DNA of 64,000 nt from a virus (Duplodnaviria > Caudoviricetes): positions 8,554-72,553 of IMG/VR virus record IMGVR_UViG_3300033072_000728. One strand, 5' to 3'. The notes below the pieces were generated by a model, which worked only from the letters and a program-made list of their open reading frames with translations, was not told the origin of the DNA and ran no database searches. How positions within the stretch are numbered: position 1 is the first letter of the stretch; each line of letters opens with the position of its first letter. Positions 13,120 through 34,413 of this stretch are shown one piece after another. The translations under genes were made by a program, and so were the position numbers.

Positions 13120-13551
13120 TCAAATGATACAAGTTGAATTGCAAAAAGATGTAGTTTGAAATGCACTAATGGGTTCAAACATCGGAATAGGGTTATTCAG
13201 CATCTTATCAACTTTATCAAGTTCTTTGCGCTGCAAATCGACATTTAATCGAATGTCTGATTCCGTAGTTTCTAAAACAGATTCTAACTTGTTGATCAAT
13301 GGTAACATGCTATCAGTTACGTCTGGGTGATCTTTTAGTTTTTCAAATGCAGCAGTTACGGAGTATAAAACGTCAGAATCTGGCACATATGAACGAACTT
13401 CGTCAAATGCTTTGAATAGGTCAGAATCGAAGTTCTCATAAAATTGAGAAGTTTCAATCAGTCTATCAATAACACATTCTGGAAGTGTACCGTGTCGTTT
13501 GAAGTATTCTTTAAACTGTTGAACACTATATGTTTCGTCAATATATTCCAT
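13120..13551 (-). CDS. hypothetical protein, tandem paralogue of 13553
   Basis: MEYIDETYSVQQFKEYFKRHGTLP. Confidence 0.8.
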   Translation of the reverse strand: MEYIDETYSVQQFKEYFKRHGTLPECVIDRLIETSQFYENFDSDLFKAFDEVRSYVPDSDVLYSVTAAFEKLKDHPDVTDSMLPLINKLESVLETTESDIRLNVDLQRKELDKVDKMLNNPIPMFEPISAFQTTSFCNSTCII

Positions 13552-13552
13552 G

Positions 13553-13969
13553 TTATTGTTTAGTATTAAAGGGGTTAGAAGGTTCAAACACCTTGAATTG
13601 GTTGTCTAACATCCTAGACACTGCGTTTAGTTGTTCAAGCTGATATTCACCGTCTTGTCGAAATTGAGTTTCTAGATGATCCAAATCATCAATGGCACTA
13701 TCAATAAGTGTAAGCGAAGTTTTGTCTTTTACCTTTGATGGGAATTCTGCTTTTGCTTCCAAAAGCAAATCTTTAACCTCTTGAAGAACATCTTCAGATT
13801 GTACACATGCTTTTGCTTCTTGAATGTTAGCCGATAGGGTTTCTTCTACTTCTTCCAAGTATTCGTATTTTTCAATCAAAAATTCAATAACATGGGCTGG
13901 AAGTGAACCATGCCGATTGAAGTATTCTTTGAAACACTGTGCGCCATAGGTTTGGTCAATGTATTCCAT
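13553..13969 (-). CDS. hypothetical protein, tandem paralogue of 13120
   Basis: MEYIDQTYGAQCFKEYFNRHGSLP. Confidence 0.8.
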   Translation of the reverse strand: MEYIDQTYGAQCFKEYFNRHGSLPAHVIEFLIEKYEYLEEVEETLSANIQEAKACVQSEDVLQEVKDLLLEAKAEFPSKVKDKTSLTLIDSAIDDLDHLETQFRQDGEYQLEQLNAVSRMLDNQFKVFEPSNPFNTKQ

Positions 13970-14063
13970 GTAATGTTAGGTCAGTTGTTTAAATTCAGGG
14001 TAGTTGAACACAAGTTCAGAGTAAAGTATAGGATTGTTGACAACGATATTCAACTTTTTGAAG

Positions 14064-14456
14064 CTAGAAAGAAGTGTCAATTGGTTGAATAACTCGGAAT
14101 AGCATTTCCGAGGTAAATTCTTTGTAGTATTTCCAAGTATTAGGAATCATTATAAAATGAAAAATTTGGTATTCTTTGGAAATGTTATAGGGTTCAATAA
14201 AAGGTTCAATATCTTCTATCCGATATAGGTCAGCTTCGTTCCACTGTTTTAACTGTGGGTTGCGTTCAATATCAGCAGAAGTTATATCTAATTCGGTTTT
14301 CCGTGTGGGTGGATTATCAGTCCATCTTACTTCTAACCCAGGGAAACGGTTATTAAAATGCCCGAAAAGTTCTTGGATTTGGCAAATCGTCTTATTGTCA
14401 TAAATTTCAAAAACAAATGGTCGAATAGCGTGGCGTATTAAAAATGTGAAGTTCAT
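14064..14456 (-). CDS. hypothetical protein, paralogue of 14619
   Basis: C-terminal PNTWKYYKEFTSEMLFR. Confidence 0.75.
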   Translation of the reverse strand: MNFTFLIRHAIRPFVFEIYDNKTICQIQELFGHFNNRFPGLEVRWTDNPPTRKTELDITSADIERNPQLKQWNEADLYRIEDIEPFIEPYNISKEYQIFHFIMIPNTWKYYKEFTSEMLFRVIQPIDTSF

Positions 14457-14464
14457 ATCAAAGG

Positions 14465-14626
14465 TTAATGGTTAGCTATTGTGTTAGATTTTGTTTGTTC
14501 AAGATCATATTCTGAGCAAATACCGTTCCATCCACGTTTTCCAACATACAGACTGTTAGTGTTCCAGACACACCATTCAATAAACACAGTCTGAACTAAT
14601 AGACATTTGAATAAAGGTTTAATCAC
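14465..14626 (-). CDS. array-2 (MIKP) cassette, GTG start
   Basis: GTGATTAAACC start; 8-nt overlap with the 14619 stop. Confidence 0.6.
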   Translation of the reverse strand: MIKPLFKCLLVQTVFIEWCVWNTNSLYVGKRGWNGICSEYDLEQTKSNTIANH

Positions 14627-15017
14627 ATGGATATTCCCGTCGAACACATCGGAACAACATTTCCGAAGTAAATGCTTCATAATGTTCCCAAGATGGCGGA
14701 ATTATAACAAACTGAAAGAATTGGTGTTTCGACAGGTCTACTTCATAAATGAAAGCATGATGTTTGATGGTGTTTACCAAATAAACATCAGACAAGAAAT
14801 GATCTTGATTGGATTCATCGTATGGGCAATACCAAACGAACTTGTCGTTACCCTTATCATATTGCTGGATGACTTGAACCCCTTTGAAAAATTGTCCGAA
14901 TCTCTGAAGTCGGAATTCTAAATCAATCTTGCCTTTAATTTGTTGCTTACGTCTATTGAATGGCTTGTTAATAAGTTCATCCATTATAAACTGTGGTGCG
15001 TTATAATATTGTTTCAT
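14619..15017 (-). CDS. hypothetical protein, paralogue of 14064
   Basis: C-terminal PPSWEHYEAFTSEMLFR. Confidence 0.75.
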   Translation of the reverse strand: MKQYYNAPQFIMDELINKPFNRRKQQIKGKIDLEFRLQRFGQFFKGVQVIQQYDKGNDKFVWYCPYDESNQDHFLSDVYLVNTIKHHAFIYEVDLSKHQFFQFVIIPPSWEHYEAFTSEMLFRCVRREYPCD

Positions 15018-15152
15018 TTATAAGCCATTCATCTAGTTTCATTTCCCTCATTTACTGAAAAGTTTCAACATATTCCCATTCAGCATAATAAAGATACGTC
15101 ACACCGAGGTGAACAACCGATTTCATTAAAGTTAATATTGGGTTTAATCATA

Positions 15153-15317
15153 CTATTTGGTCGTGTAACCAATTCCTAAAAGTGCAAAATCAATGCATTT
15201 AGATGATGTGGAATAATAGATCAGACAGGTTCGCCATCCTTCTATTTTTCTAAATGCACTCATATCGCGTTCATTTGCATTTTCAAGTCGAATGTTATTC
15301 AAGTGTGGTTTAATCAT
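15153..15317 (-). CDS. array-2 cassette (54 aa)
   Basis: Hand translation MIKPHLNNIRLE... Confidence 0.6.
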   Translation of the reverse strand: MIKPHLNNIRLENANERDMSAFRKIEGWRTCLIYYSTSSKCIDFALLGIGYTTK

Positions 15318-15318
15318 T

Positions 15319-15492
15319 TTATCCCCCTATTTCATCTCCAAGCATTTCAGATAACCATAGTTGTGATAAATCAAATCTGATTCTCACATCACTAAACAAC
15401 AAACACGAAAATCCACCGATGGTTCTAAATTGAACGTGTTCGTGATCCACGAGATTAGTATGCTCAATAAATCGAAGTTTTTCCTTAATCAT
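15319..15492 (-). CDS. array-2 cassette (57 aa)
   Basis: MIKEKLRF...QLWLSEML. Confidence 0.6.
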   Translation of the reverse strand: MIKEKLRFIEHTNLVDHEHVQFRTIGGFSCLLFSDVRIRFDLSQLWLSEMLGDEIGG

Positions 15493-15622
15493 GTGGCTTT
15501 CCTATTTCATCCATTAACCAAATTGAAATAACCGTGTTGTAAACAATATCAAAAGGATGAAACCATACATCAGTATGACCGAATCCACAAAGCTGAATGT
15601 GAGTTATTATAGGTTTAATCAT
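15485..15622 (-). CDS. array-2 cassette (45 aa)
   Basis: MIKPIITHI...ISIWLMDEIGKPHD*; 8-nt overlap. Confidence 0.6.
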   Translation of the reverse strand: MIKPIITHIQLCGFGHTDVWFHPFDIVYNTVISIWLMDEIGKPHD

Positions 15623-15797
15623 TTGTTAATATAACTTCCAACCATTTTTCAATCTCTAGTAGTTCAATATCATGAACACTTTCCACGAAAAGCAGCCATG
15701 TTGAATCAAAAGCAATAAATCCACGCTTATTCCACCATTCAATATCAAAATCATCAGTCGATTCGACGTAGAACAGCTTAATTACAGGTTTAATCAT
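15615..15797 (-). CDS. array-2 cassette (60 aa)
   Basis: MIKPVIKLFYV...IEKWLEVILTND*. Confidence 0.7.
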   Translation of the reverse strand: MIKPVIKLFYVESTDDFDIEWWNKRGFIAFDSTWLLFVESVHDIELLEIEKWLEVILTND

Positions 15798-16019
15798 TTC
15801 ACTTGATCTTTCAACCATTTTGTCGAATTATCGTCAAGATCAGTTCGATATAACCTGGCAAGTGAAATATATTCCCAGGGAGGAGTTTTGTGCCATTTCT
15901 TATCCCGACCCACAAAATAATAAGTGTATTTTCTGTCATTCCTGGAAATTTGAATTTGGTCAAAACCAGAAAGATTACACATTACACATATCGATATATC
16001 TGATAACGGGTTTAATCAC
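15794..16019 (-). pseudogene. array-2 cassette frameshifted by a 7-bp tandem duplication
   Basis: ATTACAC twice at 15974-15987; removing one copy restores a 73-codon frame from the GTG at 16019. Confidence 0.75.
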
Positions 16020-16840
16020 AATCCAAGTTCCTCAAAGGTTTGTTTAATTTCAGCCACACGCTCTGGATACCGTTTGAATATCACTTGCCATTGGACGGGT
16101 TGAATAACATCAATCAAAGTGTCAACCAAATCATCATTCAATTGATACAGAAATGTTTGACCCATATTGCTCTGATACAACAACCAAGGTGAGATTCTAC
16201 CGTTTCTGATATTCATGCAAATTCTATTAGGACTGACATTTGAAAGAACTTGATCCAGTGGTTGCTTGTACTCTGTCCCAAGTGAATCCAAAGTTTCAAT
16301 ACTTCGATGAATGGCATCAAATGGGTCTTCTTTCTTTAGAAACTCTGTTAAAAACTTTTGGTAGTTTTCATCCAATGACCAATCACCGATTTTCACTTTG
16401 TTGTCAAGTAACCATTCCATATACATCATAGTGTTAATTACTGAAGTATTGATACAGTAGTTTGCAAACTTGACAAAAGCTAGAAACGAACTTGTGCCCA
16501 TAAAATCTTTATAAGTGGTTTTTGTATTACTTGGCCAATGTAGTTTCATAAATTGTTGCCACGCCATAAAGGCTGTTCGGTATTCTAACTTATCACGATC
16601 CATCCATCGTTGTTTTTTCACACACAAATGATTCATCCATGTGGTTTCGCGCTTAAACGACATCCCACAATGTTCGCACTTGAATTCAACTTCTGGTTCA
16701 GAAACGATAGGGCTAGGAGCCTCTAGAACGGCCTTGGTTCGTTTTTTTCTGGGTGGCGTAGGTGTAGCATCATCCTTTAGATTTTTTGGCTCCTTTGGTG
16801 GCCTTCCGCGCTTTGGTTTGATCTGGGACTGTGATTCCAT
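16016..16840 (-). CDS. AT-hook- and C2H2-zinc-finger-containing protein
   Basis: KRGRPPK; FKCEHCGMSFKRETTWMNHLC. Confidence 0.75.
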   Translation of the reverse strand: MESQSQIKPKRGRPPKEPKNLKDDATPTPPRKKRTKAVLEAPSPIVSEPEVEFKCEHCGMSFKRETTWMNHLCVKKQRWMDRDKLEYRTAFMAWQQFMKLHWPSNTKTTYKDFMGTSSFLAFVKFANYCINTSVINTMMYMEWLLDNKVKIGDWSLDENYQKFLTEFLKKEDPFDAIHRSIETLDSLGTEYKQPLDQVLSNVSPNRICMNIRNGRISPWLLYQSNMGQTFLYQLNDDLVDTLIDVIQPVQWQVIFKRYPERVAEIKQTFEELGL

Positions 16841-17402
16841 GTGCTTCCTTCAATTGCTCAAGTTGTTCAGTGGTTAGAATTTTTGACATGGCTTTAATGT
16901 CACTTAACTTCATTGTATCAAACATTAATGCTAAATCACATTGGTTATTTTGAGCCTTAACATACTGTTCAACATCATTGGTAAAATCTGGCACTTTTTT
17001 TGCATACTCGGTTGCTTCTTTGTTAGAGATTTTTTCATCCATTTGGATGAACTTTTTACTAAGTTGTGGCAACCATTTGTGGTTGTATTTCTGTGAAGTG
17101 CCAGTTCCAGATGCACACATGAGCTGCCAAGTTAATTCAGGATGGTCTTTAAGTTGTTCATCAAACAGATATTTGTTTGCATAGTGGTTGGTTGCAATCA
17201 CCGCATATTCTGTTAAATGTGGTTTTTTCGGTGAATTGATTGACGCCATCCACTGAGCAAACATGAATGGGACAAACTTCTTTTGTTCTTCTGGGGTGAA
17301 TTGATTTAAAAAATCATATTGTTTGGTATCTGCTGCATTCAATGCTTCAAATAAATCAAAAGATTTTTCGTTGGTAGTTTCGTCAGTTTGGGTGGTTGTC
17401 AT
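16770..17402 (-). CDS. putative clamp-loader small subunit (T4 gp62-like)
   Basis: DLFEALNAAD...FVPFMFAQW...DHPELTWQL resembles my recollection of gp62-like proteins; likely start 17402. Confidence 0.5.
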   Translation of the reverse strand: MTTTQTDETTNEKSFDLFEALNAADTKQYDFLNQFTPEEQKKFVPFMFAQWMASINSPKKPHLTEYAVIATNHYANKYLFDEQLKDHPELTWQLMCASGTGTSQKYNHKWLPQLSKKFIQMDEKISNKEATEYAKKVPDFTNDVEQYVKAQNNQCDLALMFDTMKLSDIKAMSKILTTEQLEQLKEAHGITVPDQTKARKATKGAKKSKG

Positions 17403-17509
17403 GCTGATAATTTTGATATTGAGTAGGATAAGAATTCTGACATAAATGGATGTCGCGTGCAATAACCTTGATGGTTTATCTTGATACTAGTGATCTTGGA
17501 TTTAATCAT
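17399..17509 (-). CDS. array-2 cassette (36 aa)
   Basis: MIKSKITSI...; ATGA overlap with the gp62-like start. Confidence 0.5.
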   Translation of the reverse strand: MIKSKITSIKINHQGYCTRHPFMSEFLSYSISKLSA

Positions 17510-17655
17510 GAAATTTGGTTTTCAATACCATTGAGAAGTTGCTGTTTAAACACATCATATCTGATCGTTTTGGCATAAAAACTCAGCCGACCCAATGACA
17601 GTGATGTACCGTTTTCATATAGTAATTTTACTAGAACTATTTTAGGTTTAACCAC
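17506..17655 (-). CDS. array-2 cassette (49 aa, GTG start)
   Basis: VVKPKIVLVK...; overlaps at both ends. Confidence 0.55.
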   Translation of the reverse strand: MVKPKIVLVKLLYENGTSLSLGRLSFYAKTIRYDVFKQQLLNGIENQIS

Positions 17656-17776
17656 TAATTTCTTTCTTTATCAGAGATAGATAAGTTTCTGGAATCTCAG
17701 TATTAAGATGTCGATGCGAAATAATCCATTTGTGTTTACTCCCAAACATAACAAATTTAATAAGCGGTTTAATCAT
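17648..17776 (-). CDS. array-2 cassette (42 aa)
   Basis: MIKPLIKFVMF... Confidence 0.55.
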   Translation of the reverse strand: MIKPLIKFVMFGSKHKWIISHRHLNTEIPETYLSLIKKEISG

Positions 17777-17997
17777 GACAATAAGTTTTCCAATTGTTGT
17801 CCAAACACGGGTGAAAATAAAAGAACGCAGACCCAGGGGTTCCATTAACGATGAAATTCAATCTGTCAATATTGGATTTGGTCATCGAGTAGCTTTGTCA
17901 ATAATCTTGTTGTATAGGTGCTGCCATAAGGGTCAAATAACCTTCGCAAATTTCTACATTCTGAAACAGTTATAAACTCAATTGTAGGTTTAATCAT
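17773..17997 (-). pseudogene. array-2 cassette with in-frame TGA (17866-68) and TAA (17845-47)
   Basis: 75-codon frame ending exactly at the next ATGA junction. Confidence 0.7.
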
Positions 17998-18017
17998 TAT
18001 GAGAACCATAGAAATAC

Positions 18018-18059
18018 AAATAGCCACACCCTAACAAAAATTAAAGGGTGTGGCTATTT
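18018..18059. terminator. intrinsic terminator
   Basis: AAATAGCCACACCCT / AGGGTGTGGCTATTT, 15-bp stem. Confidence 0.9.
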
Positions 18060-18076
18060 TTGGTTATTACATCAGA

Positions 18077-18394
18077 TTAACCTTCGGAAGATGTTTGTTC
18101 AGGTTTGGGCATACGTTCTTTGATTTCAGTTAGTAGTTCGTCAACGGTGTCATAAACTTTGAATCCACCTGAATTAAATGAAATGTGCATAAACTCATCA
18201 GGATCGGCAACATTGACAGGATAAACGTATTCTTGTGTTCCGCCTTCGCATTCAAACACAAGATGTTTGGTTTCGGCATACTTTTCAATCTTGTTTTGAC
18301 ACCAAACCCAACGCTTTACGGGTGTAGGAGCTTGTCCAGACCTAAAAGTTAGATCGGTAGTTTGTGGGAATTCAGTGATGTTTACAGAAGTCAT
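18077..18394 (-). CDS. hypothetical protein
   Basis: 105 aa ORF. Confidence 0.75.
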   Translation of the reverse strand: MTSVNITEFPQTTDLTFRSGQAPTPVKRWVWCQNKIEKYAETKHLVFECEGGTQEYVYPVNVADPDEFMHISFNSGGFKVYDTVDELLTEIKERMPKPEQTSSEG

Positions 18395-18431
18395 GTTACG
18401 AAAAAGTGTGTAAGTTGTTGAGAAGGTTTGA

Positions 18432-18680
18432 TTATGCCGTAGTTGTGTTTGTGTGGGTTAATAGTGAAGCAGAATGGTTGGGATTGAATGCCGTGACATC
18501 GGGGATACGGTTGGTTTCGTCGTTTGGGTCTTTTCGGTATCTGATTTCAAGATGATGCTCCCCTGTATCAAGTAACGTCTGAATACCTTTGGAAATATCT
18601 TGAATGTTAGTAATGAAAATATAGTTTGTTGGAATACCTAAACGGTGGATCAAAACTCGTTTAATAATGGATGGTTTCAT
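18432..18680 (-). CDS. array-2-like cassette (MKPSIIK)
   Basis: 82 aa ORF. Confidence 0.65.
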   Translation of the reverse strand: MKPSIIKRVLIHRLGIPTNYIFITNIQDISKGIQTLLDTGEHHLEIRYRKDPNDETNRIPDVTAFNPNHSASLLTHTNTTTA

Positions 18681-18844
18681 GGTAGAGTTGTTTGGTCAAT
18701 ATGGTCTTTCAATTTAAAAATAATGTCAAGGGATTGAACTTGAAGTTCGATTAACAATAGTAATAATTCTGGCGTAACAAGACATCGTTCAAAATTTTCA
18801 ATAGGTTTAGTAACGCGAATGATGGTTACAATCGGTTTAATCAT
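18677..18844 (-). CDS. array-2 cassette (55 aa)
   Basis: MIKPIVTIIRV...; ATGA overlap. Confidence 0.6.
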   Translation of the reverse strand: MIKPIVTIIRVTKPIENFERCLVTPELLLLLIELQVQSLDIIFKLKDHIDQTTLP

Positions 18845-19025
18845 CTTCACTTATTACATAACATAAAATACTTATAACGTTTTCCATTTTGGAATAAGGG
18901 AAAGATTGGGATTTGCTATGAATATACGTCCACAAATAAACATCAATACAGGTTGTCCCATAATATACGTTAAAATCCGATCTAAAGTTTTTGGTTTTAA
19001 ATGATGTTAGTGTAGGTTTATTCAA
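18837..19025 (-). CDS. array-2 cassette (TTG start, xNKPTL)
   Basis: TTGAATAAACC junction variant. Confidence 0.6.
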   Translation of the reverse strand: MNKPTLTSFKTKNFRSDFNVYYGTTCIDVYLWTYIHSKSQSFPYSKMENVISILCYVISEDD

Positions 19026-19260
19026 TTCTATTCTTCCCAAATTGTAATTCAAATATCTTATTTAAATGATAATCCAGTTTATCACGTTCATACGCTGAAA
19101 TAGTTGCTTTATATGAAGTTTTTTGTTCCATTTCGGGTGAAAGTTTTATCGTATTTGACCAACCCATTGCAATTAACGGAATTCCACGATAATGTTGTGT
19201 GGCATGTCTAATTACAAACCCACGTTCACAACTAATTTTACGGATGATGGGTTTATTCAT
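19018..19260 (-). CDS. array-2 cassette (MNKPII)
   Basis: 80 aa ORF. Confidence 0.7.
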   Translation of the reverse strand: MNKPIIRKISCERGFVIRHATQHYRGIPLIAMGWSNTIKLSPEMEQKTSYKATISAYERDKLDYHLNKIFELQFGKNRIE

Positions 19261-19438
19261 TTTGGAGTTGTTTCACTATCTGTTTGTAAGTTTCTTGATT
19301 TATACGGGTTGACAGTTCATTCCAATGTTTCCAATATAAACCGCTAATAAACAATTCAAATGGTAGAGGACATAGTTCAAATTCTAATGAACGTTGGGAA
19401 TTGACAAAATGCGGATATGTTATTTGAGGTTTAATCAT
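19253..19438 (-). CDS. array-2 cassette (MIKPQI)
   Basis: Start reassigned to the junction ATG at 19438. Confidence 0.65.
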   Translation of the reverse strand: MIKPQITYPHFVNSQRSLEFELCPLPFELFISGLYWKHWNELSTRINQETYKQIVKQLQNE

Positions 19439-19661
19439 AAAATTTAGAAATGAAATGTGCTCCAAACATTTTGCGTAAGGAAGAAACGATTCTTGCATCG
19501 TCAGATAATGTAATTTCTTTCCAGAAGAAATTATTATGAAATTCATTGGTTGGTAGTCGGATAGTACATAAAGGAACACCATCGTGGTGATTTGGCGCAT
19601 ACATTACAACTAGGTATTGAAGCGGGTTGTGTAATACCTTTACAATTTTTGGTTTAATCAT
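19431..19661 (-). CDS. array-2 cassette (MIKPKI)
   Basis: 76 aa ORF. Confidence 0.7.
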   Translation of the reverse strand: MIKPKIVKVLHNPLQYLVVMYAPNHHDGVPLCTIRLPTNEFHNNFFWKEITLSDDARIVSSLRKMFGAHFISKFYD

Positions 19662-19775
19662 TGGTTAAAAACTCCATTAAACGGTTCTGCAATCTTTCAG
19701 TAAAAGCTGGAATGCCATACTTGTCTGATTTTGCCAACCAGAATAACGATGTTTTAGAATAAGTGGTTTAATCGT
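19654..19775 (-). pseudogene. decayed array-2 cassette (ACG start, frameshift)
   Basis: ACGATTAAACC start; the family-type end LMEFLTND* lies in another frame. Confidence 0.55.
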
Positions 19776-19936
19776 ATTTGCAAGAATTTTAACACATATT
19801 CTGGGAACGGTTTAGAGCGAGCAACATTTATGATCGGGGGGTTTCACCAGACCACCATGATTTAAATAACGGATTCTAACCCCATCCCAAAATAATTCAA
19901 AATGAGTACAAACTCCAATATCCAGCCACAACATTG

Positions 19937-20047
19937 TTAGTATTTTTGGTTTGACCATGTTCGTAATTTTTCAAAATCTTGAAAGATGATTTCACAAGTA
20001 GCCGATTTCCATTTACACCCGATATAATTTATTTTGGATTTAATCAT
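19937..20047 (-). CDS. array-2 cassette (MIKSKI)
   Basis: Start reassigned to 20047. Confidence 0.55.
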   Translation of the reverse strand: MIKSKINYIGCKWKSATCEIIFQDFEKLRTWSNQKY

Positions 20048-20267
20048 TATTAAATTCCAACTCAAAAAATGGGACACATTCATCGAAATTGTCAAACAAT
20101 TGTTGCCCAACATCTTCAATTCCATTTGTTAAATTTACATAAACTGCAACTTCGTATTTCCAGTTATTAACGTCATCCAATACTTGACTTATAGTTGTTA
20201 TGTAATAAGAAGAATCGGATTTTCTCGATGAAACCGTATTGCACCAATCTATTTTGGGTTTAATCAT
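20040..20267 (-). CDS. array-2 cassette (MIKPKIDW)
   Basis: 75 aa ORF. Confidence 0.7.
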   Translation of the reverse strand: MIKPKIDWCNTVSSRKSDSSYYITTISQVLDDVNNWKYEVAVYVNLTNGIEDVGQQLFDNFDECVPFFELEFNND

Positions 20268-20269
20268 TT

Positions 20270-20434
20270 CTATTTCCTTGAGATTAATTTGTTAAGCCAG
20301 TTTCTGATCTGAGTATTATATCTCTGATTTATGAACCGAACAAAATGAATAGGATATAACACCCGATCATACATATCAGCATCCGAATCTGTTATATCGA
20401 CAAATCTTACAGTTTTAAGTTTGGGTTTAATCAT
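20270..20434 (-). CDS. array-2 cassette (54 aa)
   Basis: MIKPKLK...IRNWLNKL. Confidence 0.65.
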   Translation of the reverse strand: MIKPKLKTVRFVDITDSDADMYDRVLYPIHFVRFINQRYNTQIRNWLNKLISRK

Positions 20435-20574
20435 GATAACTCTTGAATACGTCTTTTAACGCGGTTGGTAAAACTCGATGGATAATACTCATCCCCATTT
20501 GCTGGACTAATTGATCTATCTTTCAGAGATCGACAACACATGACACGAACATCTAGGATTCTAGGTTTAATCAT
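20431..20574 (-). CDS. array-2 cassette (47 aa)
   Basis: MIKPRILDV... Confidence 0.55.
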   Translation of the reverse strand: MIKPRILDVRVMCCRSLKDRSISPANGDEYYPSSFTNRVKRRIQELS

Positions 20575-20734
20575 TTTTCAACAAAACTTCCCAATGGTTT
20601 TTCATCCAATTCAACATCCCAGCATAAACAACAAACTGGGATGCATAATTGCACCTTGGACTTGATGGGGTAGATTGAAAAGTATGTTTTTGGAAACCAT
20701 TAAACACGCCAGTTTTAATCGAATCCTTAATCAT
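20567..20734 (-). CDS. array-2 cassette (55 aa)
   Basis: MIKDSIK...LLKND*. Confidence 0.55.
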   Translation of the reverse strand: MIKDSIKTGVFNGFQKHTFQSTPSSPRCNYASQFVVYAGMLNWMKNHWEVLLKND

Positions 20735-20883
20735 TTAATATCTTTCTCAAAATTTCTCAAATATCGTTCCACCACGTTCAACCATTTTGATTCTTGTTCT
20801 GGGGTTCGATAATAAGAATCATATTCAACTGAATTGTTTTCATCATCGAAACATTTTACCTATTTAAACATAGGTTTTATCAT
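20731..20883 (-). pseudogene. array-2 cassette with TAG at codon 8 (20860-62)
   Basis: MIKPMFK*VKCF...; several relatives have Trp at position 8. Confidence 0.75.
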
Positions 20884-21062
20884 AGTTCATTTAACCAGAT
20901 CGTAATATCGTTAACATGATCCGAATATGATTCAACATTCCACCAGCCAGTGACTGGGTTTGGTACTTCTACCATCAATACACCTCTTTGGTTGAAAATG
21001 CGCCACGGATATAACCCCAGTGGTTCTGAAAAATCTACCCAGTGAATTTTACGTTTAATCAT
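20880..21062 (-). CDS. array-2 cassette (IHWVDF subfamily)
   Basis: 60 aa, ends ITIWLNEL. Confidence 0.75.
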   Translation of the reverse strand: MIKRKIHWVDFSEPLGLYPWRIFNQRGVLMVEVPNPVTGWWNVESYSDHVNDITIWLNEL

Positions 21063-21277
21063 TCTGAATAGTCTTGATCAAAAATTCTACAACCTCGTTA
21101 CAATCAAAAACTGAACCAACTCTGATGGATTGTGAGAAACTATGGTCTTGATTCCATTTTCTAAATGTTAATGTCATATTGTTGAGAAATGTGGTTAAAA
21201 TTATATTCTCCGATCAGTAAACGGACAAACTCATTATCTGGATTTAATGTAAACCAGTTAATTGCGGGGTTAATCAT
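21055..21277 (-). pseudogene. frameshifted array-2 cassette
   Basis: Start MINPAINW and end VEFLIKTIQND* are in different frames; shift near 21210. Confidence 0.6.
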
Positions 21278-21513
21278 GTTACCCCGCCATTCAAACGTGT
21301 TTCTAATTTGCTGTAATAATTATCAAGGGTTTTCATAAGACCACGATGTTTAAATAAACTTATTCCCCTTACCGTATTCTGGTGATATTGATCGACTGCT
21401 TCAAGCATCATTGAACAATGGCGTTTCCCTTTAATATATTCAAACAACTTTCCAAGTTTGAATACAATATCACCATCACAAAAATATACTGCATTGATGT
21501 TGGGTTTAATCAT
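21274..21513 (-). CDS. array-2 cassette
   Basis: 79 aa, MIKPNIN. Confidence 0.7.
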   Translation of the reverse strand: MIKPNINAVYFCDGDIVFKLGKLFEYIKGKRHCSMMLEAVDQYHQNTVRGISLFKHRGLMKTLDNYYSKLETRLNGGVT

Positions 21514-21737
21514 TGTTTTAATCTATTAACTAACCAATACATTAGTTCTGGCTCATATAATTCATATTCGTTGTCATTAACGTTGTTATTCATATATGTC
21601 CGAACAAACATCCGAACGGTGGGTGGCCAAACTAATTCATCAGGATCATATCCCAAAAATATACAAAAATTAAAGTCGTTATTAACAACCGTGCCATTAA
21701 CCCCTACATACACATAAATTAGATTAGTTTTTATCAT
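21510..21737 (-). CDS. array-2 cassette (LIYV subfamily)
   Basis: 75 aa. Confidence 0.7.
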   Translation of the reverse strand: MIKTNLIYVYVGVNGTVVNNDFNFCIFLGYDPDELVWPPTVRMFVRTYMNNNVNDNEYELYEPELMYWLVNRLKQ

Positions 21738-21937
21738 GACACTTTATCAGTTAACCATTGAACCAATTCTGATTCAAAATCGGCATATATTTTCTTTTCG
21801 CGATTTCCGTTATTATTGAATTTCATAATGGTTAGTACGCATGGATAATACTCCATAAAAATTCCAAAATCGAGAACAAAAACGCCTAGTTCATCTAGTT
21901 TGCCCATTTTTACGTAAATTAGTAGTGGTTTAACCAT
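21734..21937 (-). CDS. array-2 cassette (LIYV subfamily)
   Basis: 67 aa, MVKPLLIYV. Confidence 0.7.
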   Translation of the reverse strand: MVKPLLIYVKMGKLDELGVFVLDFGIFMEYYPCVLTIMKFNNNGNREKKIYADFESELVQWLTDKVS

Positions 21938-22125
21938 TCAATAATCCTTTGTTTTTCACGTTCATAAGCATAGGTCAGCCACCTTGAACTATGCCCTAAT
22001 TCAACCATTAGTTTGAAATCATATTCCATACCAGATCAAAGGATTTTTATACAAGATGGGAACCTAGTTGGAAACCATAACGGAGAATCAATTAAGTTGA
22101 CTTCACGTAATTTTGGTTTAATCAT
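21919..22125 (-). pseudogene. array-2 cassette with in-frame TGA (22036-38)
   Basis: MIKPKLRE...IKIL*SGMEY...IIEWLNHY*. Confidence 0.75.
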
Positions 22126-22330
22126 AAGTTAGATACTTTCTTAATTCATTACATTCCATCATATCTCCATTGTATTTTCCTTGCTGAATTCCACCTAGTT
22201 CATTGATGACTAGAACTAACCGTACATATCTAAAATGCTTTGTTTGTTTATCATAATGGTGTTGTTTAGATAATTGATAATAAGTTTCTGATTTTCTAAA
22301 GTTTAGAAGTTCGATGATGGGTTTTCTCAT
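22118..22330 (-). CDS. array-2 cassette
   Basis: 70 aa, MRKPII. Confidence 0.7.
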   Translation of the reverse strand: MRKPIIELLNFRKSETYYQLSKQHHYDKQTKHFRYVRLVLVINELGGIQQGKYNGDMMECNELRKYLTYD

Positions 22331-22533
22331 AACTCATTTAACCATTGGTTTATTTCCTGAGTATGATTCTCAAACGGTTCATAAGTCCAATAATCGTTGG
22401 TTGGTGAATTAAACTCCAACAAAAGTTGTTGGTCATCATAATTTAAAAATATCCTGTATGCTAGTAGAGTACATCCTTTCCATATTCGATCTGGCTCTAT
22501 GAAATCCACCCAATGAATCGATGATTTTTTCAT
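22327..22533 (-). CDS. array-2 cassette (IHWVDF subfamily)
   Basis: 68 aa, ends INQWLNEL. Confidence 0.75.
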   Translation of the reverse strand: MKKSSIHWVDFIEPDRIWKGCTLLAYRIFLNYDDQQLLLEFNSPTNDYWTYEPFENHTQEINQWLNEL

Positions 22534-22769
22534 AGTTCATTCAGCCAGTTTTTGACATCAGGTTTATTAAAGAATTGATCTAGTGAATTAAAGTATTCGG
22601 GATCACGGGTATTATCACGATACCAGTGAAATGCACCGCCAGCCCACCACACTTGTTTGTAAGAATCAAACACTAAATCATCATTTTGGATTCTATACCC
22701 CTTTGACAATGAAAACATATTGTCAAAAACCGTGTAGAACTCAACACCGTGGAATAACGGTTTAATCAT
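22530..22769 (-). CDS. array-2 cassette
   Basis: 79 aa, ends VKNWLNEL. Confidence 0.75.
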   Translation of the reverse strand: MIKPLFHGVEFYTVFDNMFSLSKGYRIQNDDLVFDSYKQVWWAGGAFHWYRDNTRDPEYFNSLDQFFNKPDVKNWLNEL

Positions 22770-22993
22770 AGGAGTTCTCGGGAAATAAACTCAAACATAT
22801 TAACTGATTCATTCAATGTTTGATACAACATATGAGTTTCGGTCTGTTCCCCATTCAAAAACCGAACTTCTTTATACGAATCCGAAACCATTTCCCCATT
22901 CACGAACGTGGTTCCTGTATAACCCACACTCAATGATATAAATTCTTCGTCGTTTAGATAGAATAACAGTTGTTCAATGTGTGGTTTAATCAT
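22766..22993 (-). CDS. array-2 cassette
   Basis: 75 aa. Confidence 0.75.
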   Translation of the reverse strand: MIKPHIEQLLFYLNDEEFISLSVGYTGTTFVNGEMVSDSYKEVRFLNGEQTETHMLYQTLNESVNMFEFISRELL

Positions 22994-23211
22994 ATAGATA
23001 ATCCTGTTTTAATATATTGAATAATTTGAAACGTATCATCAATATCAAGTGAATCTATTTGAGATAGTTGATATGTTGCTGTAAAAACTTTTTCAGAGTA
23101 ATGATTCCATTTCATCTTTCTTGGGTTATCCATGAGCTTAAATGACGATGACAAACTTATAGAGGTTTGGGTAGTGTACAACTTAATTCTTCGCAGTTTT
23201 GGTTTAATCAT
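22990..23211 (-). CDS. array-2 cassette
   Basis: 73 aa. Confidence 0.75.
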   Translation of the reverse strand: MIKPKLRRIKLYTTQTSISLSSSFKLMDNPRKMKWNHYSEKVFTATYQLSQIDSLDIDDTFQIIQYIKTGLSI

Positions 23212-23410
23212 TAAGAAACTCCATTATCTGGCTTAACTCTTTCAAATCATTGCATTCAAAAACTTGCCCTTCTGATTTTGCAAAATCCCATACTTTAAGT
23301 ATAAAAATAGGCTCAAGTAACGGGTTATTAAACTGATTTCGGAAGTGTGATAGCTGGTAAAACTCGGTTTCAGTTTTCCATTTTACATATTTGATAACAA
23401 GTTTAATCAT
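23204..23410 (-). CDS. array-2 cassette
   Basis: 68 aa, ends IMEFLND. Confidence 0.75.
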   Translation of the reverse strand: MIKLVIKYVKWKTETEFYQLSHFRNQFNNPLLEPIFILKVWDFAKSEGQVFECNDLKELSQIMEFLND

Positions 23411-23598
23411 ATTTCAGTCAACCATTTGAATAAGAAATTCTCAAAATCTTTATATAATACCGAGCACCATCCACGATCATCAGATAGTTCGACCGAAAAA
23501 TTATAATCCCAAAAAACTCTATAATAGGTGCCCATTATCCCACTACCATCCGTCGTAGTGTCCTTAAAATCTGCAAATTTTATAACGGGTTTAATCAT
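23407..23598 (-). CDS. array-2 cassette
   Basis: 63 aa, ends FKWLTEI. Confidence 0.75.
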   Translation of the reverse strand: MIKPVIKFADFKDTTTDGSGIMGTYYRVFWDYNFSVELSDDRGWCSVLYKDFENFLFKWLTEI

Positions 23599-23770
23599 TA
23601 TTAAGGCTTTTCACGATAGTTTTACGGTGAGAGGAAAGTTCTCGTAGTTTTCAGACGATGCGCTGGATCAATTCTAGGTCAGTGTTAGCAAACAATGTCG
23701 AAGTGTATTGTTCCCATAATTAGTCGAGTTGTTCATTTAATGATTGCAACTCTGCTTTAGATTGGGTCAT
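23591..23770 (-). pseudogene. 60-codon coiled-coil gene heading array 2, with in-frame TAA (23720-22) and TGA (23651-53)
   Basis: MTQSKAELQSLNEQLD*LWEQY...QRIV*KLREL...LNND*; ends at the 8-nt junction. Confidence 0.7.
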
Positions 23771-23807
23771 TTTTGATTCGTGTTTCTATATCTTGATGGG
23801 ATGTTTC

Positions 23808-23836
23808 ATTATACGTGACTTCGACTACTTAGTAAA
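23808..23836 (-). promoter_or_regulatory. sigma70-like promoter for array 2
   Basis: TTTACT-17 bp-TATAAT on the minus strand, just downstream of a terminator. Confidence 0.7.
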
Positions 23837-23869
23837 ATAGTCAACTATTTTCAGGTGGTGACAAACGAC

Positions 23870-23911
23870 AAAAATGCCTCTACACTGTTTTTCAAGTGTA
23901 GAGGCATTTTT
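23870..23911. terminator. intrinsic terminator
   Basis: AAAAATGCCTCTACACT / AGTGTAGAGGCATTTTT. Confidence 0.9.
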
Positions 23912-23926
23912 AGTTGTTCAGTTTGA

Positions 23927-24310
23927 TTACTTTCCCGAAACGGTCTTAATCATTTCCATCAGCTCATCAAAAGTTTCACGGGTGCTGTCCCACGAATCAT
24001 GGTCATATTCCCGTGCCCTGTCCCAGACCAGTTCCTTATGTTCGTTGGAGAATTCTGGATACCCCGAAAAAGAAATATCTTTGAATTCATTCAATGCTTC
24101 AGCGTGAACAGCAAACAGCGCACGTCTATAATTGTTGATTTCATCAGTGTTGGATTCAACCTCAACAATGTTGGAAAATGCATGCGCATCGTCACGATTA
24201 TCGAAGGTAGTAACCTTGCCATTTTTTACAGCGTGATACTTAGTGATACGCACAGGTGCTGGGCCAAGTGCTGCAATCTTCGCGGCGTGAATTTCTTTGA
24301 ACGTGGTCAT
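23927..24310 (-). CDS. hypothetical early protein
   Basis: 127 aa, SD CGGAGA, own promoter and terminator. Confidence 0.8.
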   Translation of the reverse strand: MTTFKEIHAAKIAALGPAPVRITKYHAVKNGKVTTFDNRDDAHAFSNIVEVESNTDEINNYRRALFAVHAEALNEFKDISFSGYPEFSNEHKELVWDRAREYDHDSWDSTRETFDELMEMIKTVSGK

Positions 24311-24354
24311 GATGTCATTTCTCCGTTGGTTGGTTTGATTTGCATTTCTTACTA

Positions 24355-24394
24355 ACCGATGAATCTATTATGCATCAGAAAACGCGAAATGCAA
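24355..24394 (-). promoter_or_regulatory. early-type promoter, copy 1
   Basis: TTGCAT-16 bp-CATAAT within the shared 23-mer TGATGCATAATAGATTCATCGGT. Confidence 0.8.
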
Positions 24395-24424
24395 GCGCTT
24401 TCAATCAATCCCCGACGAAATCAG

Positions 24425-25840
24425 TCAACTAATCATTGCGTATCGTTCAGAGCCAAGTGTTTGCATCATAACCCCAACAGGTGAGAAGTCAGATGCGCCC
24501 AGAATGGCTTTCATGATAGAAGGTGAGAATCCGCTAACCAGTGCAACGCCAGACTTGCTAAAGCTCACTGGAACACCAACAGAAGCATTCAGGTTCCAGA
24601 AAATAACCTTTGGCACTTTGTAGCCAGCTTGCTCGTATTTTCGTTCAATCATTTGCATTGCAGCGTCATTAGGTTCTTTTGTTGCGACATCAAACTGCAT
24701 ATCACTGAAAATGATAATGTCAGTTGGCATGTCACTTTCTGGCACCTTGCCTGCAATTCCTGTTTCTAAAATTCGTTCAAAGGTTTTTTCAAGATTGGTG
24801 TTCATTCCCCATTCGAGTGATTCAACTTCACGCTTCTTTGTCAGAATTGTTTTCGACTTCAATTTCACTAAACTTGGATTTGCAGAGAACGTGCAAATCA
24901 CGTCCTTAAATGCGCCAACATTCTTATCTGCAATATACAACCCAAGTGCAATACAAACTTCCATACAAGTAACTGAAGTATTATTTCCAGCACTGGTGCT
25001 CATTGAACCTGACACATCACAAACAGGCAAAATACGGCGGTTTTGTTGTTGAGCACTTTCAAGAAAATTAGGTAACGCTTTCCATTGGGCTTCAACTACT
25101 TTGGCATCATTGCCGCGTAATACATCATGCGGAAAGATTGCAGCAGCATTGATCTTTGCATCACCACTGATTAATGCCTCTTTGTATGCACCATAACCTT
25201 CTGGATCATGTTTGTTGAATGCTTTTTGATAGTTCTTTGCTGCAATACTAGGAACATGGTTGTAATTAATTTCAGTCCATTTATTGGCACACATTTTGGT
25301 TTCAACTACATTGGTAGTATTAACCAACAATTTGCGATACTCTTTTGGAGATATTTGCATGAAAATACGAAGTTCAGATGCTTCTTTGCCCTTACGTGGC
25401 ATCCATTTTCCTGCTAATTGGTTTCCTGCTTTTAGTGCATCTTGAATGATTTTGAAAGCATGATGTTTGACTTGTTTGGTTTCAAAAATCAGCAGATCAT
25501 CAAACCGCCCAAATTCAGGCAAGTGTGACAGAAACTTGATGAGTGATTCTGGATTATGTTTTTCAAGTGCTTTGAGACATTGGCGCACAATTTCACGTTC
25601 GCCTGCACCTTGACGAATATCGCGTGCCCATGCAAGTAGTTTCATTGCAATTGCTTGGTCTTCTTTGAACGCTTGAATAAACTTTGCCGAAATATCCTTA
25701 CCACGGGATGCACCAATGGTAAAGAATAGATCAACGTGTGTATCCATACTGGAAACTTGTGTTGGCATTCCATTAGTGGTTTGGGTCAGTGGAATATGAT
25801 TGTTTTGAATGTTGACTTGGGAGATAAAACGATTTGTCAT
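24425..25840 (-). CDS. TROVE/DUF2828-type protein with C-terminal vWA domain
   Basis: ARDIRQGAGER, FGRFDDL, KWMPRK, MIDAS VCDVSGSM, IFSDMQFD, IFWNL, LVSGFS; likely start 25840. Confidence 0.9.
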   Translation of the reverse strand: MTNRFISQVNIQNNHIPLTQTTNGMPTQVSSMDTHVDLFFTIGASRGKDISAKFIQAFKEDQAIAMKLLAWARDIRQGAGEREIVRQCLKALEKHNPESLIKFLSHLPEFGRFDDLLIFETKQVKHHAFKIIQDALKAGNQLAGKWMPRKGKEASELRIFMQISPKEYRKLLVNTTNVVETKMCANKWTEINYNHVPSIAAKNYQKAFNKHDPEGYGAYKEALISGDAKINAAAIFPHDVLRGNDAKVVEAQWKALPNFLESAQQQNRRILPVCDVSGSMSTSAGNNTSVTCMEVCIALGLYIADKNVGAFKDVICTFSANPSLVKLKSKTILTKKREVESLEWGMNTNLEKTFERILETGIAGKVPESDMPTDIIIFSDMQFDVATKEPNDAAMQMIERKYEQAGYKVPKVIFWNLNASVGVPVSFSKSGVALVSGFSPSIMKAILGASDFSPVGVMMQTLGSERYAMIS

Positions 25841-33083: not shown

Positions 33084-33123
33084 ACCGATGAATCTATTAT
33101 GCATCAGAAATCATGGAATGCAA
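33084..33123 (-). promoter_or_regulatory. early-type promoter, copy 2
   Basis: Same 23-mer and TTGCAT -35. Confidence 0.8.
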
Positions 33124-34373: not shown

Positions 34374-34413
34374 ACCGATGAATCTATTATGCATCATCAT
34401 TTCAACAATGCAA
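34374..34413 (-). promoter_or_regulatory. early-type promoter, copy 3
   Basis: Same 23-mer and TTGCAT -35. Confidence 0.8.

Follow-up and report, generated by a model that had tools for sequence, protein, structure and literature searches.

We analyzed a window of 64,000 nt (the whole stretch of phage DNA examined here), in which translation from the sites of one 11-nt word, ATGATTAAACC, and of its near variants yields about 35 ORFs of 23-82 codons lying head to tail on the minus strand, together with a few remnants of 7-22 codons. An earlier note on this DNA had reported a row of small genes whose products begin with M-I-K-P, and the row is real: the word occurs in 18 exact copies, each of them on the minus strand and within 15141-23598, compared with a shuffle expectation of 0.11 for the whole window, and no shuffled sequence ever contained more than one copy. 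Outside the array, no copy was found in the rest of the 72.5-kb source record. When near variants were counted (at most two mismatches, xTG retained), 35 minus-strand sites were found in 14000-24000 versus 24 in the remaining 54 kb, and there were 12 on the entire plus strand. The array is not the continuous head-to-tail series described before, since larger genes, which are conserved, break it at 18394-18077, 17402-16016 and 15017-14619. Its features are as follows.

23869..23912, minus strand: intrinsic-terminator-like hairpin with an 18-bp stem, closing the upstream 127-aa gene just before the array
23808..23836, minus strand: promoter-like site TTTACT-17-TATAAT (10/12 matches), a putative promoter at the array head
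23598..23770, minus strand: leader ORF without the MIKP start, ~65 aa, intact in the relatives L017, L018 and L021
18432..23598, minus strand: sub-array A, about 25 units, with starts at 23598, 23410, 23211, 22993, 22769, 22533, 22330, 22125, 21937, 21737, 21513, 21277, 21062, 20734, 20574, 20434, 20267, 20047, 19958, 19661, 19438, 19260, 19025, 18844 and 18680; decayed pieces are the split units 22125+22029 and 21277+21177, the remnants 20883 and 20846, and a C-terminal remnant at 19737-19654
20880..23598, minus strand: core of the 'WL' family, 13 units with detectable full-length similarity
18077..18394, minus strand: conserved 105-aa non-unit gene between sub-arrays A and B (dN/dS 0.04-0.07)
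17399..17997, minus strand: sub-array B, four short units starting at 17997, 17776, 17655 (GTG) and 17509
16016..17402, minus strand: conserved core pair (210 aa and 274 aa) common to RaK2-group jumbo phages
15080..16019, minus strand: sub-array C, comprising a broken unit (16019/15982), units 15797, 15622, 15492 and 15317, and the remnant 15151
14465..14626, minus strand: lone unit with a GTG start, overlapping by 8 nt the 132-aa gene at 15017-14619

The lone unit is flanked by two paralogous 130-aa genes. At the opposite end, the leader ORF is broken in the window by an in-frame TAA (23722-23720), and its final codons (N-D-stop) overlap the first MIKP start. The phage carrying the array is a distant, uncultured member of the RaK2 group of jumbo myophages, in which the core pair is found without the surrounding small-gene array. 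By megablast, the flanking 6.6 kb had no match among known phages, and a single-protein search of IMG/VR with the 274-aa core gene revealed no relative.

The promoter-like site that had been placed at the head of the array was indeed found there, behind the terminator-like hairpin, and both elements are kept in all relatives; the stem of the hairpin is invariant in six relatives, and its loop is inverted in two of them. The promoter-like site is unlike three promoters with identical cores at 24355, 33084 and 34374. A scan of 13500-24500 detected no excess of promoter-like sites (51 vs 51.4 expected) or of terminator-like sites (8 vs 5.8 expected) inside the array, and a strong terminator-plus-promoter pair was seen only at the array head. 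The array thus appears to be one long operon behind a single promoter-like site, without obvious internal terminators, and it may be expressed early. Wastewater metatranscriptome contigs include relatives of the array; since contigs from RNA libraries cannot reveal transcription, strand or transcript ends, they do not serve as expression evidence.

The start word and its reading frames

Translated from its start codon, the word reads M-I-K-P, and it also holds TGA in frame +1 and TAA in frame +2. At 28 of the 35 starts, the preceding ORF (counted only if it had at least 25 codons) terminates within the word, at the TGA with a 4-nt overlap or at the TAA with an 8-nt overlap, about half of these ORFs using each stop, and such junctions leave no intergenic space between units. 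A start word carrying stops in both other frames is the key property of the array. The '-ND' ending, previously described as a unit motif, was rejected as a C-terminal protein motif because it is what the start word of the following gene spells in frame +2, where xAT GAT TAA forces N/D/H/Y-D-stop on the C-terminus of the upstream product.

The conservation profile of the array starts consists of the 11-nt word followed by a T in the middle of codons 6, 9 and 11, which corresponds to hydrophobic residues. Conservation begins at the ATG: the profile contains no conserved sequence 5' of it, including no conserved SD, and no inverted repeat or extended site was seen around the word at the junctions. 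The word is under synonymous constraint. Its Ile2 codon is ATT in 80 of 86 units versus 50% in unit bodies (p = 5e-18), and its Lys3 codon is AAA in 107 of 114 units versus 80% in bodies (p = 2e-5); the TAA is formed by T6 and A7-A8. In the Pro4 codon, CC is conserved and the wobble base is free. As the conserved CC is unnecessary for either stop, a peptide-level or start-context requirement is present too.

Three starts lie most clearly just 3' of a separate upstream stop, with gaps of 1-2 nt (20267, 15317 and 15151), and their SD-like pairing energies are -5.4, -9.3 (the strongest among the 35 starts) and -2.7, respectively. These energies did not cleanly separate coupled units, uncoupled units, other genes of the phage and random sites; either strong SDs are missing from those other genes as well, or the starts of these genes have been wrongly placed.

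Unit proteins, relatives and a second element with the same word

The dN/dS of the units was 0.34 (0.30-0.39; 27 unit families), compared with 0.11 for seven neighbouring core genes, and all 27 unit families were below 1. Judged by these ratios, the units are real protein genes under purifying but relaxed selection, which agrees with the repertoire of small proteins proposed earlier. Between unit orthologues, dS was 0.2-1.0, that is, synonymous sites outside the word are randomised. The view that the middles of the units are unrelated is no more than half correct: 37 of the 56 unit groups (56 unit families were counted over five partial genomes) have nothing detectable in common beyond the word, but about 13 units form one orphan family ('WL') with full-length similarity and a common predicted fold. 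Outside the 13-unit core, units 20434, 20267 and 15797 also belong to this family. Its layout comprises an N-terminal strand, further strands and a C-terminal helix with a W/F/Y-L motif. The subfamilies named in the earlier note were recovered by BLASTP (21062 with 22533 at 7e-13, 21937 with 21737 at 9e-6, and 22993 with 22769 at 2e-6).

The AF2 model of the WL unit 22533-22330 has four strands and a helix (pLDDT 76.7), with the first seven residues outside the fold; the model of the non-WL unit 19661 reached a pLDDT of only 61. Searches of the units against Pfam, PHROGs and PADLOC yielded no match except one weak PHROG (phrog_7022, E 7e-4, function unknown), and there was no match to known virion protein families. 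One unit searched by tblastn against phages had no match, the ESM Atlas offered no neighbour above chance, and Foldseek found nothing at E <= 1e-3 in PDB and BFVD. The best VIA-align rows, PURA repeat III (Z 4.0, rmsd 5.1, 61 aligned), a T5 PC4-like protein (Z 3.5) and Borrelia Pur-alpha (Z 3.3), were all at noise level; they were compared for the beta-beta-beta-beta-alpha repeat of PUR / PC4 / Whirly-type nucleic-acid binders. The units were thus assigned to no characterised family, and none of the results that the earlier note had named as refuting its proposal was obtained; the proposal is partly supported.

In five metagenomic relatives (L011, L013, L017, L018 and L021), the shared units are collinear and differences concern whole units. 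Among 136 homology breakpoints, 51% lie within 15 nt of a junction start versus 11% for random positions, a clustering that is somewhat inflated because alignments run into the conserved word regardless of the neighbouring sequence. In L013, four units (23598-22769) are missing and the sequences that meet there overlap by 11 bp; single-unit indels (20267, 22533 and 15797) and a two-unit indel (17776+17655) have overlaps of 18-23 bp, and these indels are unit-precise. An extra joint, 19260|20580, was present in contigs from wastewater RNA libraries, and two large deletions have non-junction ends (22251..19701 in L021 and 20647..18489 in L018). Sub-array B has seven units in L017 and one or two in L018 and L021. 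Tandem duplicates of units are present in relatives, and some units are split or truncated in one genome and intact in another. The expansion, the decay and the change through junctions that had been predicted are thus all observed; shuffling, which had been predicted with them, is not, as no altered unit order and no cassette in a new position was seen in any of the five relatives. Given this collinearity, the word may mediate deletions and duplications only, not exchange.

The same word is reused in a second element (L099, L023, L036, L032, L095 and L097), where it chains a different, unrelated family of small proteins with the same -4/-8 overlaps. When this family was compared with the array units by hhalign, only the first 11 residues aligned, and no gene common to the second element and the array phages was found. 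The word might also be an inheritance common to both families, if these are very distantly homologous. One Pfam match in the second family was spurious. A search for a two-word DNA pattern returned only chance pairs or short repeats in IMG/VR, and in GTDB genomes the hits were repeats with 21-66-nt periods, either CRISPR-like or in tandem, which were rejected as gene arrays.

A candidate coupling mechanism and its alternatives

With moderate confidence, we propose that the array encodes a family of small accessory proteins that are translationally coupled and turn over by birth and death, in which the word would be both a frame-independent stop/restart signal and a recombination microhomology. 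About 35 lineage-specific proteins of 40-80 aa are encoded head to tail, each unit opening with a word that offers a start in frame 0, TGA in +1 and TAA in +2. Because stops exist in both other frames, an upstream gene terminates on the next start whichever of these frames it uses, and the terminating ribosome would probably restart there (termination-reinitiation coupling), so that the chain would tolerate indels and unit swaps. No sequence other than the word, with 0-12 flanking nt, is repeated in the array, and the word could therefore provide microhomology for unequal recombination, which may delete, duplicate or insert whole units. Eleven nucleotides are short for homologous recombination. 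Unit-level recombination and the decay of single units would together produce a fast birth-and-death turnover, and the unit proteins are most likely host-interaction or counter-defence factors.

A broader proposal, which we put forward only tentatively, is that ATGATTAAACC is a portable, SD-independent stop-and-restart signal usable from any upstream frame, a universal adaptor adopted by convergence or transfer among mobile elements that share no detected gene. Any small gene beginning with it could then join an operon chain, be expressed, and be acquired or dropped with no harm to its neighbours. The MIKP N-terminus that the units have in common would in that case be a side effect of a signal in RNA and DNA rather than a protein motif.

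Passive inheritance would account for several of these observations without any function of the word: one ancestral gene was tandemly duplicated and the word is its slowest-evolving remnant, an A/U-rich start context being favoured, the overlaps being ordinary phage packing and the indels ordinary recombination between paralogues. The array is in part a true paralogue family, relatives show tandem duplicates, ATGA overlaps are common in prokaryotes (PMC6728339), and AAA and ATT are already the commonest Lys and Ile codons here. A mere remnant is difficult to reconcile, however, with ATT and AAA being held far above codon usage in the word while synonymous sites elsewhere in the units are randomised, with the 37 of 56 unit groups that lack detectable likeness past it, or with a second family that has no similarity past residue 11 and no detected common gene and nevertheless has the same 11 nt and both overlap types; we regard this explanation as unlikely. 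Less probable still is that M-I-K-P(-x-hydrophobic) tags diverse cargo for targeting, processing or packaging, the array encoding proteins packed into the virion and injected, as with the capsid targeting sequence of T4 internal proteins. Such a tag would fit the seven N-terminal residues outside the modelled fold, the conservation of Pro4 despite its free wobble base, and the situation in the relative fHe-Yen9-04, where many small genes close to the homologous core pair have been assigned to virion structural proteins by annotation. It would leave the synonymous constraint on ATT and AAA unexplained, and alignments of either family show no conserved Glu or other invariant or cleavage-like residue after M-I-K-P in the first 15 positions. 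Moreover, the array has its own promoter-like site (TTTACT-17-TATAAT) and adjoins genes of the replication module of known relatives, and its units match no known virion protein family.

Unit-precise indels at the word, and its presence in an element with no detected common gene, would also be expected if the word were the core site of a phage recombinase or nuclease and the units were integron-like mobile cassettes. This we consider very improbable, as the word has no inverted repeat or extended site and the relatives are strictly collinear with no sign of repositioned cassettes; no recombinase gene was encountered beside the array in the window or among the called genes of the relatives, an absence that is weak because about 21% of the genome is covered.

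The coupled family proposed here resembles several known systems in part. In the hyperplastic regions of T4-type phages, PeSLs are intergenic promoter-plus-terminator cassettes of ~100 bp that make each gene its own transcription unit (Arbiol et al. 2010, PMC2839356; PMC4122927). In both cases small, non-essential ORFan genes in a large myophage are separated by a short conserved repeat, the places where close relatives have gained, lost or replaced genes coincide with this repeat, which flanks the differential ORFs, and the repeat is proposed to be both expression signal and recombination substrate. The array repeat, in contrast, is 11 nt long, lies inside coding sequence at the start codon, would act, if at all, on translation, and gives all proteins the same first four residues; sigma70-like promoters with stem-loop terminators between small ORFs were not encountered in the array. 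The SAS of Cluster K mycobacteriophages is a 13-bp G/C-rich sequence, GGGATAGGAGCCC, with an SD core, located 3-7 bp before the start codon; it has no established function and has been suggested to take part in translation initiation (Pope et al. 2011, PMC3203893). Like the MIKP word, it is conserved in one orientation at the starts of many non-structural genes of different families and sometimes includes the upstream stop, but the MIKP word opens with the ATG itself, lacks an SD and contains a stop in each of the two other frames, and the two sequences are unrelated. Termination-reinitiation at overlapping ATGA / TGATG pairs is established in bacteria (Huber et al. 2019, PMC6728339; PMC10666635); the 4-nt ATGA overlap is identical and the same restart mechanism is proposed for the array. 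Known pairs, however, are scattered and lack a fixed extended word, whereas a single word here gives both -4 and -8 overlaps, serves either upstream frame and is repeated ~35 times in a row.

Diverse small proteins with only a short conserved N-terminus in common, encoded by a gene set that varies between relatives, are also known as the T-even internal proteins, which are packaged by means of a capsid targeting sequence of ~10 residues ending at a prohead-protease site (hydrophobic-x-Glu) (PMC3012670); the N-terminus of the array units shows no cleavage motif, and its conserved part coincides with a nucleotide word under synonymous constraint. Precedents for a single small-protein family that reaches tens of copies within a giant phage, and for recombination that alters copy number, are the lineage-specific expansion of zinc ribbons in Bacillus phage G (about 35 copies; PMC7824862) and the recombination-driven amplification of T4 tifA (bioRxiv 10.1101/2022.04.14.488369). 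In those cases there is no shared junction word and the copies are still recognisably one family, whereas most array units have diverged beyond recognition and kept the word.

Large phages carry hundreds of small accessory genes, and how these are expressed and exchanged without disrupting their neighbours is poorly understood. One 11-nt word that starts a gene, ends the previous one from either other frame and marks whole-gene gain and loss is a very economical arrangement. If its restart function is true, it would explain conserved N-termini in unrelated families of small phage proteins, supply an annotation rule for genes below 60 codons that pipelines miss, and be of use as a compact coupling element in synthetic operons. 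With its 56 unit families, the repertoire is also a delimited set of candidates for host-interaction or counter-defence proteins.

The start word and the head of the array

The 11-nt start sequence ATGATTAAACC (hereafter, the word), which reads M-I-K-P, occurs in 18 copies in the window against an expectation of 0.11, all of them minus-strand copies lying between 15141 and 23598, and a search of the rest of the 72.5-kb source record returned zero exact copies. When up to two mismatches were allowed, 35 word sites were found within 10 kb, at each of which an ORF 23-82 codons long or a shorter remnant begins (these small ORFs are called units and are named by their start coordinates). The head-to-tail array of small units described in the earlier note is therefore present, but it is interrupted by conserved larger genes, namely a 105-aa gene, a core pair of 210-aa and 274-aa genes (17402-16016), and a 132-aa gene.

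The conservation profile of the starts comprises the 11 nt of the word and a T as the middle base of codons 6, 9, and 11, with no conservation in the sequence upstream of the word. The word starts at ATG, is translated, and lacks an SD; its frames 0, +1, and +2 contain ATG, TGA, and TAA, respectively. Neighbouring units share either 4 nt (ATGA) or 8 nt (ATGATTAA). At 28 of the 35 starts an upstream ORF of at least 25 codons ends on the TGA or TAA of the word, split about evenly between the two, and at starts 20267, 15317, and 15151 a separate stop lies directly upstream. The strongest SD-like pairing among the 35 starts is that of 15317 (-9.3); overall, the SD comparison did not discriminate. 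The recurrent '...ND' ending, previously taken for a motif of the units, is explained by the next start word read in frame +2: C-terminal '-ND', '-YD', '-DD', and '-HD' all correspond to xAT-GAT-TAA, and they were rejected as a protein motif.

Codon choice within the word was compared in 115 units from five genomes. Ile2 is encoded by ATT in 80 of 86 units vs 50% in unit bodies (p = 5e-18), and Lys3 by AAA in 107 of 114 units vs 80% (p = 2e-5); for Pro4, the wobble base is unconstrained. The TAA in frame +2 requires precisely ATT and AAA at codons 2-3. Stops do not account for the conserved CC of the word.

The head of the array contains the following features:
23912-23869, terminator with an 18-bp stem, closing the upstream 127-aa gene
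23836-23808, promoter-like site, downstream of the terminator and before the leader
leader of ~210 nt, after the promoter-like site

All three are kept in six relatives, and the promoter that had been proposed to head the array is borne out to the extent that a conserved promoter-like site lies there. Promoter-like and terminator-like sites within the array showed no excess over shuffled sequence. The leader contains an ORF of ~65 aa that ends in N-D-stop over the first MIKP start and is intact in three relatives. It is interrupted by an in-frame TAA at 23720-23722 (minus strand) in the window and by the same codon in L013 (CAA elsewhere), and by an in-frame TAG at a different Gln codon in L011; beyond the nonsense codon, frame and sequence are kept. 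These stops could reflect repeated nonsense decay, or else stop read-through or suppression.

In the array relatives L011 and L018 (metagenomic contigs), the loop of the terminator hairpin (23869-23912) is reverse-complemented compared with the window and the relatives L017, L021, and L013. Because the stem is unchanged, this difference is a hairpin-loop inversion. Elsewhere in the window, three promoter-like sites (24355-24377, 33084-33106, and 34374-34396) share one identical core (TTGCAT, 17 nt, CATAAT, and a conserved stretch), which is unlike the site at the array head.

Source phage and turnover of units among relatives

The source is a 72.5-kb IMG/VR virus record (21% complete according to CheckV), 64 kb of which form the window. 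Its 1126-aa baseplate wedge protein (58450-61830; phrog_10646, E 4.5e-262) shares 32-36% identity with proteins of Salicola phage SCTP-2, Agrobacterium phage Atu_ph07, Klebsiella phage RaK2, and their kin, and the same degree of identity holds for the 274-aa protein within the array region (16016-16840; phrog_11058). Judging from these two matches, the source phage is a distant uncultured jumbo myophage of the RaK2 group. Wastewater, freshwater, and groundwater runs contain DNA that is near-identical or related to it. In SCTP-2 and fHe-Yen9-04, the core pair lies within the replication module without a small-gene array, and the word occurs only once and twice, respectively; the array is therefore a gain in the lineage of the window.

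Several neighbouring features were also recorded. A single ORF of 5444 aa (42066-58400, minus strand) adjoins the baseplate wedge gene. L017 (10278-11165) and L018 (9772-10692) carry a gene of 295-306 aa, flanked by the core 274-aa gene and the last unit, that is missing from the window and L021. Two tandem paralogue pairs, kept in relatives, lie directly downstream of the array (13120-15017):
15017-14619, 132-aa gene, pair 1
14456-14064, 130-aa gene, pair 1
13969-13553, 138-aa gene, pair 2
13551-13120, 143-aa gene, pair 2

In L011, L013, L017, L018, and L021, the flanking genes have 77-92% DNA identity and the arrays differ. The interval from the 127-aa to the 105-aa gene measures 5.5 kb in the window; that of L017 is longer (6.2 kb), and those of L018 (3.7 kb) and L021 (3.2 kb) are shorter. 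Presence or absence of units is unit-precise: in L013 the leader is joined straight to unit 22769, with four units absent and an 11-bp overlap, and overlaps of 18-23 bp accompany the single indels of units 20267, 22533, and 15797 and of the pair 17776+17655. L017 has three additional units at 20434, and L011 an additional 96-aa unit at 21937. A junction start is no more than 15 nt away from 51% of the 136 homology breakpoints, vs 11% for random positions; two large deletions have their ends within units, off junctions. Tandem duplicates were found in family 2 (L017 and L011), family 7 (L013), and families 44/41 (L017), and many units that are split or truncated in one genome are intact in another. 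Four RNA libraries from a single wastewater study yielded contigs with further array variants, including a joint (19260|20580) that removes eight units.

The expansion and decay that the earlier note had proposed are seen in these comparisons, as is change by whole units at the junctions. Shuffling is not evident, because shared units are collinear throughout, apart from one possible deviation that could be due to a paralogue. In the simplest history, an ancestral array of at least 45 units lost members by deletion from one junction to another and gained others by local duplication. Two further contigs are either chimeric assemblies or true recombinants: in L015 (719-1117), one reading frame joins a 4TM-phosphoesterase-like N-terminus with the C-terminal half of unit family 6, and in L012 (3-701), an LRR-repeat gene and a partial copy of a 22769-type unit precede the array.

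Unit proteins and a second element with the same word

dN/dS was estimated for the 27 unit families that have orthologues in two or more genomes. The pooled value is 0.34 (bootstrap 0.30-0.39), with no family reaching 1, compared with 0.11 for seven neighbouring core genes; the units are genes, as expected of a small-protein repertoire. With the first five residues removed, 102 units form 56 ortholog groups, nine of which join one superfamily, with a few small clusters; 37 of the 56 have no detectable relative. The proposal that unit middles are largely unrelated holds for these 37, but not for the WL family, whose members (13 units from 23598 to 20880, plus 20434, 20267, and 15797) can be aligned from end to end. 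Shared features are an N-terminal strand, more strands, and a C-terminal helix that carries a W/F/Y-L motif. An AF2 model from this alignment (pLDDT 76.7) consists of four strands and a helix and leaves residues 1-7 out of the fold; no structural match rose above noise (top, PUR repeat, Z 4.0). A unit outside the family gave a poor model (pLDDT 61). No characterised family was found: Pfam, PHROGs, and PADLOC searches gave no matches, and a profile search of 1.84 billion representative proteins gave 12, all within this lineage.

A search of JGI metagenomes for a two-word pattern revealed a second element on six contigs (L099, L023, L036, L032, L095, and L097; GC 27-39%). They carry as many as 16 units, 40-75 aa long, each of which begins with ATGATTAAACC, and the overlaps are again 4 or 8 nt. 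The units make up a family distinct from that of the window, with the consensus M-I-K-P-x-K-x-I, a near-invariant Tyr, and then x-x-L. These contigs encode PhoH-like, Ku-like, TnpB-like, helicase, DUF932, and DUF7448 proteins, have no protein in common with the window and its relatives, and matched no close known phage. Since hhalign aligns the two families over the first 11 residues only and no protein is shared, what the two systems have in common would be the word and not the protein. In L097 (8194-9429), a TnpB/IS200-605-type transposase-like gene (phrog_506, E 2e-111) adjoins the Ku-like and PhoH-like genes.

A proposed dual-use junction and its rivals

We favour the word as a dual-use junction. 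It would serve as a frame-independent stop and restart signal that links small genes translationally, and, being the only repeat in the array, also as the microhomology at which units get lost and duplicated. Passive inheritance of a good start context is an unlikely explanation, a peptide tag like the T4 capsid targeting sequence is less probable again, and a dedicated recombination site seems very improbable; no single one of the three accounts jointly for the synonymous constraint at codons 2-3, the two overlap classes, and the second family. Among the closest published cases are the PeSLs of T4-type phages (PMC2839356), the start-associated sequences of Cluster K mycobacteriophages (PMC3203893), and termination-reinitiation at ATGA overlaps (PMC6728339); full-text literature searches for the word or MIKP returned nothing relevant.

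Several properties suggest that the unit proteins may have host-interaction or counter-defence roles: they are small and orphan, selection on them is purifying but relaxed, their turnover is rapid, and the array lies behind its own promoter-like site and beside genes that belong to the replication module in known relatives.
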